Shown piece by piece: positions 8,510-15,737 of a stretch of DNA of 32,000 bases. The stretch comes from Candidatus Thorarchaeota archaeon (GTDB lineage Archaea; Asgardarchaeota; Heimdallarchaeia; Hodarchaeales; Hodarchaeaceae). The stretch covers positions 200,193 to 232,192 of the forward strand of contig JBHLRO010000004.1 in NCBI GenBank assembly GCA_048882505.1. The letters run 5' to 3'. Under the pieces are notes generated by a model. The model searched no databases and had not been told where the DNA came from. It saw nothing but the letters and a program-made list of their open reading frames with translations. Positions within the stretch are counted from its first letter, which is position 1; every line of letters begins with the position of its first letter. A program made the position numbers and the translations under genes.

Positions 8510-10408
8510 TCAATCAGTCTTAAGGTTATTTTCTTTTAAAGGCGGAAAAAACAATTCTTCAGTAAAATATTTCTGAAAATTGGTGATCGTAGAAAGTTCC
8601 ATTCTTTGTACCTTTCTTGAAATTATCTCTGAAGCCTCTCGTGCTTCAAGAGAAAGTAAAAATGTTCTTCCTCCTCGTTCTGCTGTATTTCCATAAGCTT
8701 TGAATCTTGTTGGCGGAAGATTTGGTAGAAGCCCAATGATTCTGGCGTTCTCTATATTTAGTTTGGATCCAAATACACCAGCGATCGATACTGTGTCAAT
8801 ATCTGCTATATTTATATCTATCTCGTTTGTTAAAGCCCGAATTGCCGCAAGCGTGGCTGCTTTCGCCTTCTGAACCTCTACGATATCTTCCCGCGTAAGG
8901 GCGATGGTTTTGTGACCTAGACTATCTGCCGATCTTTGAGGTACAATGATTAGCTCCTTTTTTACCGTTCCTTCTCGTGAAAGAAGGCGCCCTCGTCGAT
9001 CAAGTTGACCATGAATTCGTAGTGAGGCAAGGATATCAATAATTCCTGATCCACAAATTCCTCTTGGAGGCGCAGAACCAATCGTAAGATAATGAAAAGA
9101 GTCATTTGTTATCCAAAAAGTCTCAATGGCCCCAGTGATTCCTCGCATCCCGCAGGAAATATGTTGTCCCTCGAAGGCCCCCCCAGCGGCAACAGATGCT
9201 GCGTAAATGGCCCCATTTCTTACTAAAATTATCTCTGAATTAGTACCAAAGTCGATTAACAAGTGAGTGCCCATGCGGCCAGGAAGATCAGAATATAATA
9301 TATCCACGACCGCATCCGAACCAATAAACCCTCCAATAAGGGGAGGCAATGATATGGTTGAAGTGGAGGGTAATCCCAGTATGTTTTCATCAACTATCTC
9401 ACCAATAGTGTAAGATACTCCTTGAATGATAACAGGGATATACGGGGCACGCGCCAATCCATCGATAGCCAAACGTAAGAATAAATGATGCATAACTGAA
9501 TTACCTACAACCACCAATTCGACGATGGAAGACATAACTTGCCTCCCTAAGTTGCTGTCTCGAAGCATGCTGCCGATCAGGTTGTGGATCTCATGAAATA
9601 CTGCTTCCTGTAATTCTCGTCTATTGGAGGATGAGCTAAGTGCATAAGATAGTCGTGACATGATATCGCGACCGTGCTCAATCTGGGGATTGAGAGCAGA
9701 ATTCGCACCAATAATACGACCTGATTCTAGATCGATTAACGTGGTCACGATTGACGTTGTTCCAATATCAACAACCACTCCAAGCAATCGATCATTGATA
9801 GCTCTGTCAAGAGGATTAATCCTCGTTATTGTTTGATTCTCCTTATCCAGGACGACCCGGATTTCTTTCTGTGCTTTCCGGGGTTGATCATAAAATGCAT
9901 CCAAAGCTGATTTTTTAATACCCAATCTCGTTAGTTTAGGAAATCGATTCAGAAGCGTTTGTTTTAAACGTGTGAAGTCATCTAAAGGTGTTTCGAGCGT
10001 GGCGGGCATCAATTTGATGGTTACCGTTTCGAAACGAGGATTGTGGGGATATAGAAGTCTAAAATTTTGATAAGAATCTTGAATCTTGAAGTCGCTTACC
10101 TGAAGCTCTTGAAAATCAATGGGAATCACTTTTAGATTCTTGATGGGAATGAACTGACACGCTAGACGAATATCCTCATCGACCATTGCACCAAGGAGCT
10201 GTTTTTCTGTCAAATTAGGGTTCATTACATTTGAATGATCTTTTGTGACGATCTTAACCCTACATCTTCCACATCTTCCAGTTCCACCGCACAATGAAAT
10301 AAATTTTTTCTTGCCTGTTCTTCCCTTTAGGAGATCTAATAATGTTAAAGATTCGCTTGAGGATTCAATGAAATCCTTATAACCTTCAATTTCGATCGTG
10401 ACGATTAT
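8510..10408 (-). CDS. RACo/ASKHA-domain (DUF4445) reductive activator of corrinoid proteins with N-terminal [2Fe-2S] ferredoxin
   Basis: CGGTGRCGRC...RLACQ cluster motif, VDIGTTSI, DFGTNSEI, AAGGAFEG, GICGSG, IAGVFGS, GNTAERG. The track starts at TTG 10294, immediately before the first Cys; the frame is open upstream and the ferredoxin N-terminus begins near 10408 (see findings). Confidence 0.9.
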   Translation of the reverse strand: MIVTIEIEGYKDFIESSSESLTLLDLLKGRTGKKKFISLCGGTGRCGRCRVKIVTKDHSNVMNPNLTEKQLLGAMVDEDIRLACQFIPIKNLKVIPIDFQELQVSDFKIQDSYQNFRLLYPHNPRFETVTIKLMPATLETPLDDFTRLKQTLLNRFPKLTRLGIKKSALDAFYDQPRKAQKEIRVVLDKENQTITRINPLDRAINDRLLGVVVDIGTTSIVTTLIDLESGRIIGANSALNPQIEHGRDIMSRLSYALSSSSNRRELQEAVFHEIHNLIGSMLRDSNLGRQVMSSIVELVVVGNSVMHHLFLRLAIDGLARAPYIPVIIQGVSYTIGEIVDENILGLPSTSTISLPPLIGGFIGSDAVVDILYSDLPGRMGTHLLIDFGTNSEIILVRNGAIYAASVAAGGAFEGQHISCGMRGITGAIETFWITNDSFHYLTIGSAPPRGICGSGIIDILASLRIHGQLDRRGRLLSREGTVKKELIIVPQRSADSLGHKTIALTREDIVEVQKAKAATLAAIRALTNEIDINIADIDTVSIAGVFGSKLNIENARIIGLLPNLPPTRFKAYGNTAERGGRTFLLSLEAREASEIISRKVQRMELSTITNFQKYFTEELFFPPLKENNLKTD

Positions 10409-10599: not shown

Positions 10600-11634
10600 G
10601 TGAATCAAGCAAGGCGACTGGCAATCAAGAGCAGAATGGATAGGTTCCGTAAGAATCGGCCTCTATTAGTGGAATGGTTGAAATTGGAAGAAACTTCAGA
10701 GAAACGAATCCCCATAGCCATTGTCGGCCTCGAAAACGCGGGAAAGACAACTCTGACGAAACGACTCCAAACAGGACGTTTCGAACCAACCTATACAGTT
10801 ACTAGGGGATTAGATGTTGAAACAGCTGATATTCATGGTAAACTCTTTCAACTTTTTGACCTGGGAGGCCATCTTAAGTTTCGTGAGTTATTTTGGAAGA
10901 ACTACATCCAGTTATCTCAAGGTATAATATTCGTAATCGATGTGAACGATCAGACCAAACTTAACGAAGCCACAAATTGGTTATGGAAATGCCTTAAGTG
11001 GAATACCGGGGTTCCTCTACTTATCTTGGCAAATAAATCGGATTTACCCCATATCGAATTAGATGAACTCATAGACCTTATCGGGCTTGCAAATCTTCCT
11101 AAACAAAATCCAACCAGATCTTTTCGTCTTTTTGAAGTTTCTAACAAAAGCGGCAGGAATTTAACCGATGCCTTTGATTGGTTTTCTCAAAAGATCATTC
11201 AAGATGTTTCACAGAAGAAGATAAAACTGGTTGGAATATATCTTTATCTTCCCACGGGTATTCCAATTGCATCCCATCGATTTACGAGAAACAATATTGG
11301 TGAGCTAAGCGAGGATGTTGTTCCTGGATTCTTATACGCCCTAGATCAATTTGCAAGTGGGGTGATTGGTCCAAACGAAGGACTTAACTCTGTTACTACT
11401 GAAAGTGGCCGTATTCTCATGGCAAAGCGTGAAGGTGTTATGTGCGCCATAGTAACAGATAAGGAATCCGATCCAGTGACTTCCAGAGTGATCGCGGAAT
11501 CTTTTCTAACCTATATTGAGTCATCGTTTTCAAAAGATTTAGTTATGTTGAAGGAGGAGGGGAAGTCCCTATTCCCGAAAGATTTTATCGTAGACTTTCT
11601 CAAGCAAGAATTCGCTCAGAATCTTATTCAATGA
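10600..11634 (+). CDS. Arf/Sar1-like small GTPase fused to a C-terminal longin-like domain
   Basis: G1 GLENAGKTT, G2 TVTRG, G3 DLGGH, G4 NKSD, G5 VSNKSG. The C-terminal ~130 aa (LVGIYLYLPTGIPIASHRF...VVPGFLYALDQFASGV...) has the longin beta-beta-alpha-beta-beta-beta-alpha pattern. Confidence 0.88.
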   Translation: MNQARRLAIKSRMDRFRKNRPLLVEWLKLEETSEKRIPIAIVGLENAGKTTLTKRLQTGRFEPTYTVTRGLDVETADIHGKLFQLFDLGGHLKFRELFWKNYIQLSQGIIFVIDVNDQTKLNEATNWLWKCLKWNTGVPLLILANKSDLPHIELDELIDLIGLANLPKQNPTRSFRLFEVSNKSGRNLTDAFDWFSQKIIQDVSQKKIKLVGIYLYLPTGIPIASHRFTRNNIGELSEDVVPGFLYALDQFASGVIGPNEGLNSVTTESGRILMAKREGVMCAIVTDKESDPVTSRVIAESFLTYIESSFSKDLVMLKEEGKSLFPKDFIVDFLKQEFAQNLIQ

Positions 11635-11758: not shown

Positions 11759-12052
11759 ATGCCCAAAAAAGGTCAACTAGAGGAATGGTTTTCCCGTATC
11801 CTATATGGCAATGAGGACCAAGGACGGTACTCAATTGTTTTCAGGGATTTCAGTGATTTCATTGAACTTTCCTTTCATGAATTCCTAATAAGAAAGCGAG
11901 AAGATTCCATTCCGTTGCATCGTGTATCGCAAATCCGTAAAGACGGAATTCCAGTGTACACTAGGCCTGATTTTTGTTCATCGTGCGGTTACAGAAAACC
12001 TAGGCACAGTTCTACCTGTTCCTTTGCAGTTGTTGGCGTTAACAGTGAATAA
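11759..12052 (+). CDS. DUF504-family protein with C-terminal C2HC Zn-finger-like tail
   Basis: IPLHRVSQIRKDGIPVYTR resembles the DUF504 signature IP.HRI..I...G..V..R; tail CSSC-x6-H-x3-C. Confidence 0.7.
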   Translation: MPKKGQLEEWFSRILYGNEDQGRYSIVFRDFSDFIELSFHEFLIRKREDSIPLHRVSQIRKDGIPVYTRPDFCSSCGYRKPRHSSTCSFAVVGVNSE

Positions 12053-13323: not shown

Positions 13324-13707
13324 TTGGAGGTGTCGTTTATAGCATTTATCTTGGTGTACACTCGTACAACCCAATTACGTAGAAAGTGGAGTCGATTTTA
13401 TACGCAATATCCTGAGCTTTTTGTTGAAAAGATCAGTGAGGGCGTATTTACAATGCGTAATTGTGGAAAAACCTTAGCTTTGATATTAACTGAGTGGAGA
13501 AAGGAAAGGGGTAACATTGAAATCTCTGTATTAGAACCTGTACGACTAGATGACTTGGAGAATGATTCAGACTTGACAAAAGTGGCATTCCATGTCGAAA
13601 AGGAAGGTCTCGATGTAATGGATAGCGCGATTGATGATCCAGAATTTTTCAATACACTTGACCAGCTAGAGAAGAAGCGATTCTCGGTTATGTTAAACCT
13701 GCGTTAA
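13324..13707 (+). CDS. Hypothetical protein, first gene of the SMC-like unit
   Basis: ORF ending 12 nt before the next gene, acidic C-terminal half. Start uncertain: TTG at 13324 or ATG at 13453 (84 aa). Confidence 0.65.
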   Translation: MEVSFIAFILVYTRTTQLRRKWSRFYTQYPELFVEKISEGVFTMRNCGKTLALILTEWRKERGNIEISVLEPVRLDDLENDSDLTKVAFHVEKEGLDVMDSAIDDPEFFNTLDQLEKKRFSVMLNLR

Positions 13708-13719
13708 AGAGGCACAAAC

Positions 13720-13908
13720 ATGCCAAAAGGAAAAGAAGAGATCAAAAGGTTGTCAGAGAAAAAGAAGAAGCTTCTTAGCCAAGTAGAGGAACAGCTAGTT
13801 CTTCATTTGAAAGAACTGGGTTCGCTGCCCGCAACTTCCTTAAAAAATTCTGATCCCCTCTTTAAAAAGCTTCAGTCCTATGCTTTGAAATGGCGCGATG
13901 AGAAATAA
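13720..13908 (+). CDS. Small basic helical protein, translationally coupled to the SMC-like gene
   Basis: 62 aa with ATG start; stop TAA (13906-13908) overlaps the SMC ATG (TAATG). Confidence 0.75.
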   Translation: MPKGKEEIKRLSEKKKKLLSQVEEQLVLHLKELGSLPATSLKNSDPLFKKLQSYALKWRDEK

Positions 13909-15737
13909 TGACACTAACTATTACATTACAAAATATTGGCGGCATTGACGAACTTACCCTTAATTTTAGACAAGGTAAGAATTTGATTACTGCACCCAAT
14001 GCTATTGGGAAATCATCATTTGTTCGTGGAATCGAACTTCTTAATATGCCTGGTAGTAAAATATCAAAGAGAAGATATTATTTCAATCTATTCACAAAAT
14101 CAAGTTCAGTCAAGCTAGATATGGAAGGTTATGGGAAAGCAGAGAGACACTTTAATATTGACGGTAAAAAAATCACGGTGGTAGGAGATACCTTCCATCC
14201 CGAGAACCAGAAAGTGAATCTATTTAGCTTGGCAACTCCAGATAACAAGCTTATAACTTCCATTACCACAGGAAGGAATTTAGAAGAACTCCTTACCCAA
14301 TACTCAGATGTAAAATACTATTCTTATCTCATATCAGTCATAAAGAATCGTCTTTCAAATCTAAAGAAAGATCTCCGAATTTATTTAGTTTATGAGTCAG
14401 ATGTTGAGAATCTAAGAAAAGAACGATCGAATCTAGAGCGAGAGCTTAGTAACGCGGAAAAAGATCGAAAATCTCTCCCCAAAATAAACCTTGAGGAAAT
14501 TAAATCCCTTAAGGATTCGGAGGCACGATTCCAAGAGCTTACAAAAGAGGTAGCCAACCTAAAAAATATGATCGAGGCGGCTCACGATATAATTAAACTC
14601 GACAAGGCGAGAATACGCGATCAACAAAAACTCTCGGATCGGATGGAGGAGGAAATCAAGAATTTTATGAATGATCATCCTCGGGTGGAGCAGGAAATAA
14701 GCCATCTGGTAACCCGTACCAAAGAAACACGGAAGTTCCTGCAAGAAGTCAAACAAGAGAAGCGAGAAACAGAGAAGGCAATTAAAGAGGTAAGGAATTG
14801 GATTTCTCTGAGTCGTTCAATGGATTTGTCTAAATGTATAATCTGTGGACGTCCTTATAGCGAAAAAAACGCCAAAAATCGAGAAGACAAATTACTGGTC
14901 GAAGATTCGCACCAATCCAAGCGAATGAGGGAATATGAATTTCAAATTGATGATTTAGAGCGTCGAAAAGAAGACCTTGAATTACAGGTTCACAGAATAA
15001 AAAATGACAATCAACTTAGGATAAACAAAGCTCAAAAAGAAATCCGTCGGCTTAACCGTGAGATGCAGGAAAAGGAGGAAGAGATAGATTCCAGTAAAAA
15101 AACGTTGGAAATAAAATCATCAGAATTGAAAATCCTAGAAAAATCGATCGACGACGATTTAAAAACTAAAATCGAATTGATTACTGACCTTGATGCAAAA
15201 ATCCAACGGATTTCGGGAAAAATTGAACAGGTAGAAAAGCAGATTGGTGAAAAATCCGATCGAATGGGCCAGGCGGATCTGGTTCAGGCCGAACATGAAT
15301 TCTACCAGGTATTTCAAGAACATCTTGAATCCAGGGAAAAGATTGTCAAAATGCTGGTTCTTGAAAACTTCAATGCTCAGATTAAATTTGTTTATTCACG
15401 ATTAAAATTCCAAGATTTCGAAGAAATCAAAATTGATAACGAATTTCGCCTTATTGTAAGGCGAAAACGAAGAGGCGCTACAATTGACCAGCCTATCGAA
15501 TCACTCAGCGATTCCGAGCGGATTACGATTGCTCTAATCTGCATGCTTGCAGGACGTGAGGAATACGTGAAGGATTATCCGATTTTCTGCTTGGACAAGG
15601 TTACGTTGGATTACGACCCAAGCCGATTTTCAATGATTCTCGATTACCTTGTTCAACGCGGGGTGCCCTATATTCTGGTTACAGCAGCAAAAAGCATTGA
15701 GGACAGCTCAGGCCAACTAGAAGTGGAATATTTGTAA
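13908..15737 (+). CDS. SMC-like protein of the archaeal Sph/ClsN (ASRP) type with central CxxC zinc hook
   Basis: NIGGID, Walker A APNAIGKSS, two antiparallel coiled-coil arms, CIIC at aa 310-313 of 609, signature LSDSE (aa 533-537), Walker B IFCLDK. Confidence 0.88.
   Translation: MTLTITLQNIGGIDELTLNFRQGKNLITAPNAIGKSSFVRGIELLNMPGSKISKRRYYFNLFTKSSSVKLDMEGYGKAERHFNIDGKKITVVGDTFHPENQKVNLFSLATPDNKLITSITTGRNLEELLTQYSDVKYYSYLISVIKNRLSNLKKDLRIYLVYESDVENLRKERSNLERELSNAEKDRKSLPKINLEEIKSLKDSEARFQELTKEVANLKNMIEAAHDIIKLDKARIRDQQKLSDRMEEEIKNFMNDHPRVEQEISHLVTRTKETRKFLQEVKQEKRETEKAIKEVRNWISLSRSMDLSKCIICGRPYSEKNAKNREDKLLVEDSHQSKRMREYEFQIDDLERRKEDLELQVHRIKNDNQLRINKAQKEIRRLNREMQEKEEEIDSSKKTLEIKSSELKILEKSIDDDLKTKIELITDLDAKIQRISGKIEQVEKQIGEKSDRMGQADLVQAEHEFYQVFQEHLESREKIVKMLVLENFNAQIKFVYSRLKFQDFEEIKIDNEFRLIVRRKRRGATIDQPIESLSDSERITIALICMLAGREEYVKDYPIFCLDKVTLDYDPSRFSMILDYLVQRGVPYILVTAAKSIEDSSGQLEVEYL

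Follow-up and report, generated by a model that had tools for sequence, protein, structure and literature searches.

Gene organization of the locus

The window analyzed in this study is a 32,000-nucleotide stretch (positions 200,193 to 232,192) of contig JBHLRO010000004.1 from assembly GCA_048882505.1, which is deposited as Candidatus Thorarchaeota archaeon. The source is an Asgard archaeon, as a preliminary description of this DNA had supposed, and is placed in Hodarchaeales. Between positions 13324 and 15737, three genes lie on the same (+) strand: two small genes, hereafter referred to as A and B, and a gene for a 609-amino-acid (aa) SMC-like protein of the ASRP family. The coordinates of the genes and motifs are listed in Table 1. 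The tight packing described previously, i.e., a 12-nucleotide gap between A and B, the sequence TAATG at the end of B, and the 609-aa SMC-like gene that follows, agrees with the open reading frame (ORF) coordinates. One base of TAATG is common to the TAA codon of B and the ATG codon of the ASRP gene; this overlapping stop/start arrangement is conserved among relatives and suggests that the two genes are translationally coupled. The candidate start codons of A are TTG 13324, which gives a protein of 127 aa, GTG 13330, TTG 13351, and GTG 13354. In a relative with 97% identity, a stop codon is found just upstream of A, and the NCBI annotation there is 117 aa long. The 84-aa form that was offered as an option in the preliminary description begins at an internal ATG and must be too short, given that relatives conserve the 40 residues ahead of this methionine. 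As the preliminary description had stated, neither mre11, nurA, herA, scpA, nor scpB is adjacent to the three genes according to the annotation of the neighbors.

Table 1. Positions of the A-B-ASRP genes and of the ASRP motifs in the window
Feature	Position	Strand	Remarks
Gene A	13324..13707	+	ORF; small partner protein of 117-127 aa
A-B spacer	13708..13719	+	12 nucleotides, read from the sequence; GAGG (Shine-Dalgarno-like) 8 nucleotides before the ATG of B
Gene B	13720..13908	+	ORF; 62 aa from ATG
ASRP gene	13908..15737	+	ORF; 609 aa; match to NCBIfam NF045487
Walker A (A29-PNAIGKS-S37)	13992..14018	+	Intact, N-terminal
Zinc hook CxxC (C310-I-I-C313)	14835..14846	+	Coil apex, loop 306-318, in the AlphaFold2 model
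Signature LSDSER (residues 533-538)	15504..15521	+	Family version of LSGGQ/E
Walker B IFCLD-K (residues 559-564)	15582..15599	+	Lys where the family consensus LDE has the catalytic Glu

Family assignment and predicted structure of ASRP

The large gene encodes a full member of the family of archaea-specific SMC-related proteins (ASRPs); its 609-aa product is neither a Rad50 nor a condensin. This family was defined by Yoshinaga, Nakayama, and Inagaki in 2022 and includes Sulfolobus ClsN (coalescin), which is a chromosome-compartment factor, and Halobacterium Sph1/2 (PMC9389158). The protein matches the NCBIfam model NF045487 (ASRP) with 337 bits (cut-off = 300 bits, E value = 2.1e-100), and the match covers residues 9 to 594 and profile positions 1 to 591 of 593. 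Its motifs follow the arrangement of the family, with Walker A at the N-terminus, CxxC halfway along the coiled coil, and LSxSER ahead of a Walker B motif at the C-terminus. Close homologs with 61-89% identity originate from metagenome-assembled genomes (MAGs) of Hodarchaeales and Heimdallarchaeia, and several of them are already named ASRP at NCBI. The Rad50 equivalog models, in contrast, gave 12 to 33 bits against cut-offs of 700 to 1087 bits, and the highest-scoring one (NF041034, 32.9 bits, cut-off = 1000 bits) aligned only with the coiled coil. For canonical SMC proteins, which have a hinge domain and are approximately 1150 to 1200 aa long, the profile scores were 17 to 24 bits against cut-offs of 567 to 729 bits.

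In a quick maximum-likelihood tree of 120 rows, from which named ClsN and canonical SMC sequences were left out, 109 rows form an ASRP clade with a Shimodaira-Hasegawa-like approximate likelihood ratio test (SH-aLRT) value of 98, and the 609-aa protein is located inside this clade. Six of eight Mre11-linked Asgard Rad50s are on the outgroup side, apart from the ASRP clade; in the Asgard Rad50 loci, mre11 is directly upstream. The profile score and the tree placement uphold the earlier assignment of the head to the Sph/ClsN type rather than to Rad50 or condensin. SMC-like proteins of 612 to 631 aa from the Asgard genomes G074, G070/G064, and G107 (loci L051, L052/L053, and L054, respectively) form a separate group that is positioned between the Rad50s and the ASRPs in the tree (SH-aLRT = 97). 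These proteins score approximately 92 to 109 bits on the ASRP model, well under the cut-off, and each of their genes is directly preceded by a small helical ORF of its own.

The genome that contains the window has one ASRP, and its Mre11-like gene sits on another contig. The only SMC_hinge match in this genome is a 1217-aa ORF on contig 7, so the ASRP coexists with a canonical hinge-bearing SMC in one genome, as is the case for other members of the family. The Pfam model of the ScpA kleisin (PF02616) found no match in this genome, which is 94.55% complete, at E values up to 0.001; the kleisin might have diverged too far for the model, or its gene might be in the unassembled part.

The AlphaFold2 model of ASRP (predicted local distance difference test [pLDDT] = 93.4) takes the shape of an ABC-type head, formed by residues 1 to 130 and 500 to 609, with an antiparallel coiled coil of two helices (residues 135 to 305 and 319 to 499) that has one discontinuity at residues 189-198/412-415. 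The CIIC sequence that had been noticed at the midpoint of the protein is found at the apex of this coiled coil, and Cys310 and Cys313 are nearly invariant among 92 representatives of the ASRP family. The nearest solved folds are those of Rad50 (top match), MukB, Lamassu LmuB (631-aa chain), Smc5/6, and SMC heads; no solved structure of an ASRP was found.

ATPase motifs

The Walker A motif, the LSDSER signature, the aspartate of Walker B (Asp563), and the D-loop aspartate are all intact in ASRP, and the residue that follows Asp563 is Lys564. Among the 33 close homologs, LDK occurs in 32, and the motif was not located in the remaining one; the close homologs keep the Walker A motif, LSDSER, and the CxxCG hook alongside LDK. 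The Glu-to-Lys change is fixed throughout the Hodarchaeales clade. At the same position, the 92 family representatives have Glu (57), Ser (18), Asp (5), Ala (4), and Lys (3), i.e., the catalytic glutamate that is absent here is the residue of the majority. Its absence does not bar membership in the family because other accepted members, those of the Sph type, also lack it. The RdfA-linked ASRPs of haloarchaea have lost the glutamate (LDS) and have a degenerate Walker A motif (N-[KR]-TS). In the whole family, the position of the ABC H-loop histidine is occupied by Thr or Ala, and the presumed Q-loop position, which was assigned from the alignment alone, is occupied by Asn. The Walker B glutamate mutants of SMC and ABC proteins serve as the model for heads that stay bound to ATP and hydrolyze it slowly. 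By analogy, the heads of Hodarchaeales ASRPs would bind ATP and engage with each other while hydrolyzing ATP slowly.

Proteins encoded by genes A and B

Neither A nor B has a match in Pfam (E values up to 1), NCBIfam, or PADLOC. Both are real genes, because they are under purifying selection and A has a confidently predicted fold. The ratio of nonsynonymous to synonymous substitution rates (dN/dS) is 0.07 to 0.12 for A and 0.21 to 0.36 for B in unsaturated pairs, with higher values where the variable tail of B dominates the pair. The AlphaFold2 model of A (pLDDT = 89.8) has a ferredoxin-like β-α-β-β-α-β core (residues 8 to 70) and four helices; the core is continued by a helical tail. The C-terminus of A carries a conserved basic/hydrophobic strand motif (KRFSV-like), which is unstructured in the monomer model. 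Fold searches with A listed generic ferredoxin-like matches only, including the UreE C-terminal domain, Cas2, and ACT/RAM-like domains (best Z-score = 7.2; Foldseek E values of 0.01 or above), which does not speak against families outside the list.

The best neighbor of the A model in the ESM Atlas is an archaeal DUF7855 cluster (template modeling scores of 0.49/0.56). The Thermoplasmata homolog of A scored 19.3 bits against DUF7855 (Pfam PF25253; E value = 0.0015), where the cut-off is 27 bits, and neither A nor the other 16 rows of the A alignment matched this profile, which has no match in the genome of the window either. Two annotated haloarchaeal plasmid loci with RdfA and ASRP have no DUF7855 neighbor. 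We regard the likeness of A to DUF7855 as a lead, not as membership. The feature search of the ESM Atlas gave no usable match for A or B. A comparison of A with the 132-aa protein of the Archaeoglobales locus L044 using hhalign gave no significant match; this protein and the 155-aa protein of locus L057 resemble each other by eye only.

In the B protein, an N-terminal tail rich in Lys and Arg precedes two predicted helices (LVLHLKELGSLP ... DPLFKKLQSYALKWR). In five loci of other Hodarchaeales (L002, L003, L020, L022, and L023), B read from its first start codon overlaps the 3' end of A by approximately 130 nucleotides in another frame, which leaves some doubt about where B begins there and how long its basic tail is. 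The N-terminal extensions of longer ASRP homologs were considered as natural fusions of B with ASRP; they are of low complexity and are not B-like.

Linkage of A and B to ASRP genes

The two small genes accompany the SMC-like gene in close and in distant relatives, as had been anticipated. Both A and B are present in all 13 loci of genus-level relatives for which upstream sequence is available, a co-occurrence that says little by itself because the flanking synteny is conserved too. A search of 301 Asgard genomes, which are incomplete and, where related, are not independent samples, with a profile of the A family gave 23 matches in 20 genomes. Twenty-one of these matches are on the same strand as an ASRP match and within a few hundred bases upstream of it, and the other two are at contig ends in genomes in which the ASRP gene begins another contig. 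No A-family match away from an ASRP gene was found in the 301 genomes, and three genus-level genomes without an ASRP match are also without A. Two of the A-family matches (G199:C134:3226-3504 and G208:C63:79465-79827, with open frames of 104 and 129 aa, respectively) cross one in-frame TAG codon; these copies could be truncated or decaying, or the TAG could be due to a sequencing error or to an overrun of the profile past the true stop.

A word-index homology search with A returned just three near-identical relatives; the distant ones were recovered by profiles on fetched loci. When iterated, the A profile recruits proteins of 110 to 135 aa that are encoded directly upstream of distant ASRP genes. 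Within Asgard archaea, these are found in two other Heimdallarchaeia genomes, in two genomes of another Asgard family, and in one more genome. Outside Asgard archaea, they are found in a Nanoarchaeota MAG, two Thermoplasmata MAGs, and a Nitrosotalea MAG, and further homologs come from one unclassified archaeon and one metagenomic contig. The second ASRP paralogs of three genomes have their own, more divergent copies of A.

B is conserved throughout the Hodarchaeales relatives. Outside the RdfA-linked clade, an ORF of 37 to 70 aa ends at or overlaps the ASRP start in every locus that was inspected, and each of these B-like ORFs encodes two amphipathic helices behind a basic N-terminal tail. The sole match of the B profile outside Hodarchaeales had an E value of 5.6e-19, which dropped to 0.0077 in a larger set. 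In Bathyarchaeia (L091-L103), the ASRP matches are approximately 480 to 490 aa long and are preceded only by a conserved B-like ORF of approximately 55 aa with the pattern PYI.E.E..AL.IL...KE.LKE.LE.YA.RY; no A-like gene or AAA+ gene was seen in these loci.

A wider archaeal cassette

The preliminary description had suggested that the three genes may form an Asgard machine. This restriction did not hold, as Nanoarchaeota, Thermoplasmata, Nitrosotalea, and Archaeoglobales have the same A-B-ASRP core, in most cases accompanied by an AAA+ gene and extra genes. Related loci were searched for with a 22-sequence subset of the 92-sequence ASRP alignment. Outside Hodarchaeales, the core is usually preceded by a gene for a single-domain AAA+ ATPase of 235 to 250 aa (Pfam AAA, E value = 1e-22). 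Upstream of the latter is a gene for a protein of approximately 270 to 290 aa without family assignment, for which a feature search of the ESM Atlas returned nothing informative, and at the front of the cassette is a gene for a small DNA-binding protein with a histone fold (PF00808, E value = 1.5e-11) or a helix-turn-helix (HTH). The full cassette of six co-directional genes is seen at L089:1196-5330 in a Thermoplasmata MAG and also in L087, L088, L085, L041, and L086/L029, and it occurs in several unrelated archaeal phyla. In one variant, a 413-aa AAA+ protein is paired with a 155-aa protein, and a variant locus of Archaeoglobales has a DndB-like gene instead. Locus L086 (DATKTP010000242.1) is labeled as a MAG of the bacterium Candidatus Deferrimicrobium, and its AAA+, A, and B are identical to those of L029 (G297:C242), a contig that belongs to a genome in the Asgard phylum set. 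The bacterial label of L086 is probably a binning error, which matters because the ASRP family paper weighed rare "bacterial" ASRPs.

In the tree, the clade of the window is nested, with a long stem of 0.7, within a 37-row clade that includes the AAA+-linked cassettes (SH-aLRT = 100), and the genome of the window has no orthologue of the cassette AAA+; the best match is 34% identity to Cdc48-like proteins of 730 to 780 aa. For these two reasons, the three genes look like a vertically inherited, reduced form of the wider archaeal cassette. The most parsimonious interpretation is an inherited cassette from which Hodarchaeales lost the genes upstream of A and in which the Glu-to-Lys change became fixed. 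The ASRPs of haloarchaea and Methanosarcina form a separate clade (SH-aLRT = 95) and have RdfA (PF21811) beside the gene instead.

Predicted binding of B to ASRP

The complex of full-length ASRP and B, each with its own alignment, was predicted in three runs plus controls. The score was 0.60 (0.61, 0.59, and 0.60 in the individual runs), the best control had 0.00, and the result was graded as weak support. In the calibration of this score, 58 of 80 solved complexes pass the mark, as do 2 of 110 mismatched pairs, and scores of 0.60 or under comprise only 7 of the 80 solved complexes and both of the passing mismatches; this calibration is only approximate for our self-made alignments. The contacts agree by at least 87% between the runs, and the pLDDT of the partner is at least 73. 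The complex prediction that had been proposed as a check thus exceeds its controls for B. When the strong prior from gene linkage is added to the weak prediction, it appears somewhat probable that B binds ASRP.

Proposed complex and alternative explanations

The evidence for the three genes as a whole is computational. The explanation that fits it best, and which we hold with slightly more belief than doubt, is that A, B, and ASRP encode one complex, the product of a reduced cassette, which acts as a slow or static tether or clamp on DNA or chromatin. In this complex, two copies of ASRP would be joined at the tips of their coiled coils via a zinc ion shared by the CxxC hooks and at their ABC-type heads via bound ATP, by analogy with Rad50 and ClsN. 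The B protein would be translated in step with ASRP and probably binds it, with the head or the head-proximal coiled coil as the candidate site. Mre11, kleisins, and LmuC bind to their SMC-like partners at the head or the head-proximal coil, and the nearest solved structural relatives of ASRP all work with partner subunits bound to the head or neck. The A protein would be a second dedicated subunit that contacts B or the head. Because Lys564 replaces the glutamate while the Walker A motif, the signature, and the D-loop aspartate are kept, the heads would still bind ATP and engage but would hydrolyze it poorly, and poor hydrolysis would make the Hodarchaeales version a tether or clamp like coalescin rather than a motor. 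Three points favor DNA or chromatin as the substrate: the full cassette includes a gene for a histone-fold or HTH protein, the head is of the SMC superfamily, and ClsN provides a precedent; the identification of DNA as the substrate is nonetheless tentative, and we would place it somewhat on the doubtful side.

Several observations weigh against this explanation. No DNA-binding motif was shown in A, B, or the ASRP head, and haloarchaeal Sph3, together with RdfA, affects cell shape and not demonstrably chromosomes (PMC10869688). The binding prediction, which covered the B-ASRP pair only, gave weak support and returned no interface. The likeness of B outside Hodarchaeales lies in position, size, and helical pattern, not in a significant profile score, and one paralog locus (G297:C64) has a B-like ORF and no detectable A. 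The lysine at the catalytic position could also disturb the binding of Mg-ATP. Finally, the neighborhood in Hodarchaeales (TatD, RidA, a PCC-domain protein, and GTPases) offers no functional hint.

The ASRP and its two small partners could instead determine cell morphology in the manner of Sph3-RdfA, with no role on DNA. Rod formation and motility of Haloferax need both Sph3 and RdfA, and genes of the RdfA family adjoin SMC-like genes in approximately 80% of haloarchaeal cases (PMC10869688), i.e., the same family with a small partner alongside. The window is also rich in Arf- and Ras-like GTPase genes. However, no similarity of A or B to RdfA was detected, the RdfA-linked ASRPs belong to a clade other than that of the window, and the histone-fold or HTH protein that heads the wider cassette points to DNA. 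The mechanism by which Sph3 affects shape is itself not known, and we consider a cytoskeletal role unlikely. A role in defense or in the maintenance of mobile elements, similar to Lamassu or Wadjet, is a less plausible proposal. In such a system, ASRP would be the sensor of foreign or aberrant DNA, A and B would be its adaptor subunits, and the Hodarchaeales genes would be a domesticated or decaying remnant. The top PADLOC matches are indeed Lamassu LmuB models (E value = 2.7e-13 with 48 bits for the window and 1.3e-20 for Thermoplasmata), the solved LmuB chain is among the nearest folds, and the extended cassette is scattered over unrelated archaeal phyla, with some loci near a DDE transposase, HNH, or DndB-like gene. 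On the other hand, neither the three genes nor the core cassette includes an effector (nuclease, Cap4, TIR, etc.), and the Hodarchaeales locus is single-copy, under purifying selection, and syntenic with housekeeping-type genes across many genomes. A search of IMG/VR viral contigs found no relative of ASRP and no viral carriage, although its coverage, limited to two peptide patterns, is too small to prove absence.

The A and B proteins might not be subunits at all but co-transcribed regulators, assembly factors such as chaperones of the hook or head, or passengers in the operon. The weak B-ASRP prediction without an interface is compatible with this idea, as is the generic fold of A, which occurs in regulatory and metal-chaperone domains (the UreE C-terminal domain and ACT/RAM-like domains). 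The exclusive association of A with ASRP genes in the 301 genomes and several phyla, together with the fixed A-B-ASRP order and the stop/start overlap, exceeds what is usual for operon passengers and makes this idea improbable. Least credible of all is a Rad50-like ATPase for double-strand-break repair that has lost Mre11. The zinc hook, the Rad50-like head, Rad50 as the top structural match, and the weak Rad50 profile matches over the coiled coil are features that would be expected of it, whereas the equivalog scores far below their cut-offs, the position of the Mre11-linked Asgard Rad50s outside the ASRP clade, the lack of an adjacent nuclease gene, the separate Mre11-like gene elsewhere in the genome, and the loss of the catalytic glutamate all argue strongly against it.

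The A-B-ASRP complex on DNA or chromatin is the explanation that we prefer. A broader proposal, about which we are more doubtful than convinced, is that A, B, the AAA+ protein, and the protein of approximately 280 aa constitute an unrecognized non-kleisin SMC-like holocomplex that is widespread in Archaea, of which the Hodarchaeales form would be a hydrolysis-impaired zinc-hook tether that organizes chromatin alongside the canonical SMC.

Comparison with known systems

The family of the large gene already has a name; in the searchable literature, we found no account of A, of B, or of the AAA+-linked cassette. The ASRP family paper reported no consensus among the genes that flank ASRP genes (PMC9389158), whereas A and B are consistently upstream in the loci described here. 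The Hodarchaeales proteins also differ from the family in the lysine at the catalytic position of Walker B.

The preliminary description had compared the locus with Haloferax Sph3 and its small neighbor rdfA. The analogy stands as far as position is concerned: in Haloferax volcanii, too, an ASRP gene lies beside a small partner gene, often with a stop/start overlap (PMC10869688). It does not extend to the proteins, as RdfA is one protein of approximately 210 aa with cysteine pairs at both ends, whereas A and B are two proteins without cysteine motifs. No match to RdfA (PF21811) over the cut-off was found in the genome of the window, and hhalign comparisons of the A and B alignments with one haloarchaeal-type RdfA sequence gave probabilities below 1%.

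Similar to Rad50 of the Rad50-Mre11/SbcCD complex, ASRP is a coiled-coil ABC ATPase with a zinc hook. Mre11 binds to the head-proximal coiled coil of Rad50 via a small helix-loop-helix domain, and the two helices of B might bind to the head-proximal coil of ASRP in a similar way. The two systems differ in that the three genes have no mre11 or other nuclease gene beside them and in that ASRP lies outside the Mre11-linked Rad50 group. The Lamassu complex LmuB/LmuC/LmuA (PDB accession numbers 9hqu and 9hqx) also combines an SMC-like protein of approximately 600 to 630 aa with small partner subunits. Unlike Lamassu, the three genes have no detected effector of the LmuA type or homolog of LmuC, they lie in a chromosomal, syntenic setting, and the PADLOC match is modest.

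ASRP shares the SMC-superfamily head and coiled coil with SMC-ScpAB, MukBEF, and Smc5/6, and accessory subunits bound to the head or neck would be expected in each of these systems. It is, however, half the length of the proteins in these kleisin-based complexes and has a zinc hook in place of a hinge, and A is ferredoxin-like rather than a winged-helix protein. The suggestion that A and B are mini-kleisin subunits found no backing: neither protein matches a kleisin or KITE family in Pfam or NCBIfam, and no kleisin is among the fold matches of A. B is too short to be judged in this respect and might bind to the neck in a helical mode.

To our knowledge, no other branch of the SMC superfamily is as poorly understood as the ASRPs, and we know of no member for which the subunit composition or mechanism has been established. 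The new elements of this study are the genome-wide count that shows the exclusive association of A with ASRP genes, the nesting of the reduced set of three genes among full cassettes in a lineage whose genome has no AAA+ orthologue, the lineage-wide Glu-to-Lys change, and the controlled but weak prediction of B-ASRP binding. If most ASRPs other than those of haloarchaea have two small proteins and often an AAA+ protein, these are defined components that can be co-expressed, purified, and imaged, and the natural Glu-to-Lys change of Hodarchaeales offers a ready comparison of probably hydrolysis-impaired with active forms. Hodarchaeales are often placed closest to eukaryotes among the archaea. 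The question of an ASRP complex thus becomes directly testable in a lineage that is relevant to the origins of eukaryotic chromosomes.

Neighboring genes and other observations

The three genes have a TatD-family gene as a neighbor on the opposite strand; the other neighbors are genes for an MJ1316-domain protein, RidA, a PCC-domain protein, and Arf/Ras-like GTPases. None of the public sequencing runs listed with this stretch is an RNA run; six DNA runs from three studies contain all or part of it, and one of these may be from the source sample. At positions 8510-10294 (- strand), the window encodes a RACo-type protein of the corrinoid activation family, and at positions 11759-12052 (+ strand), it encodes a 97-aa MJ1316-domain protein (RNA cyclic-group end recognition, E value = 2.7e-6). 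At least one further Hodarchaeales genome (L003) has relatives of both close to its ASRP locus. The 344-aa protein encoded at positions 10600-11634 (+ strand) has a GTPase domain of the Arf/Sar type (Pfam Arf, E value = 2.4e-32, residues 31 to 199), which is followed by approximately 140 residues without a Pfam match.

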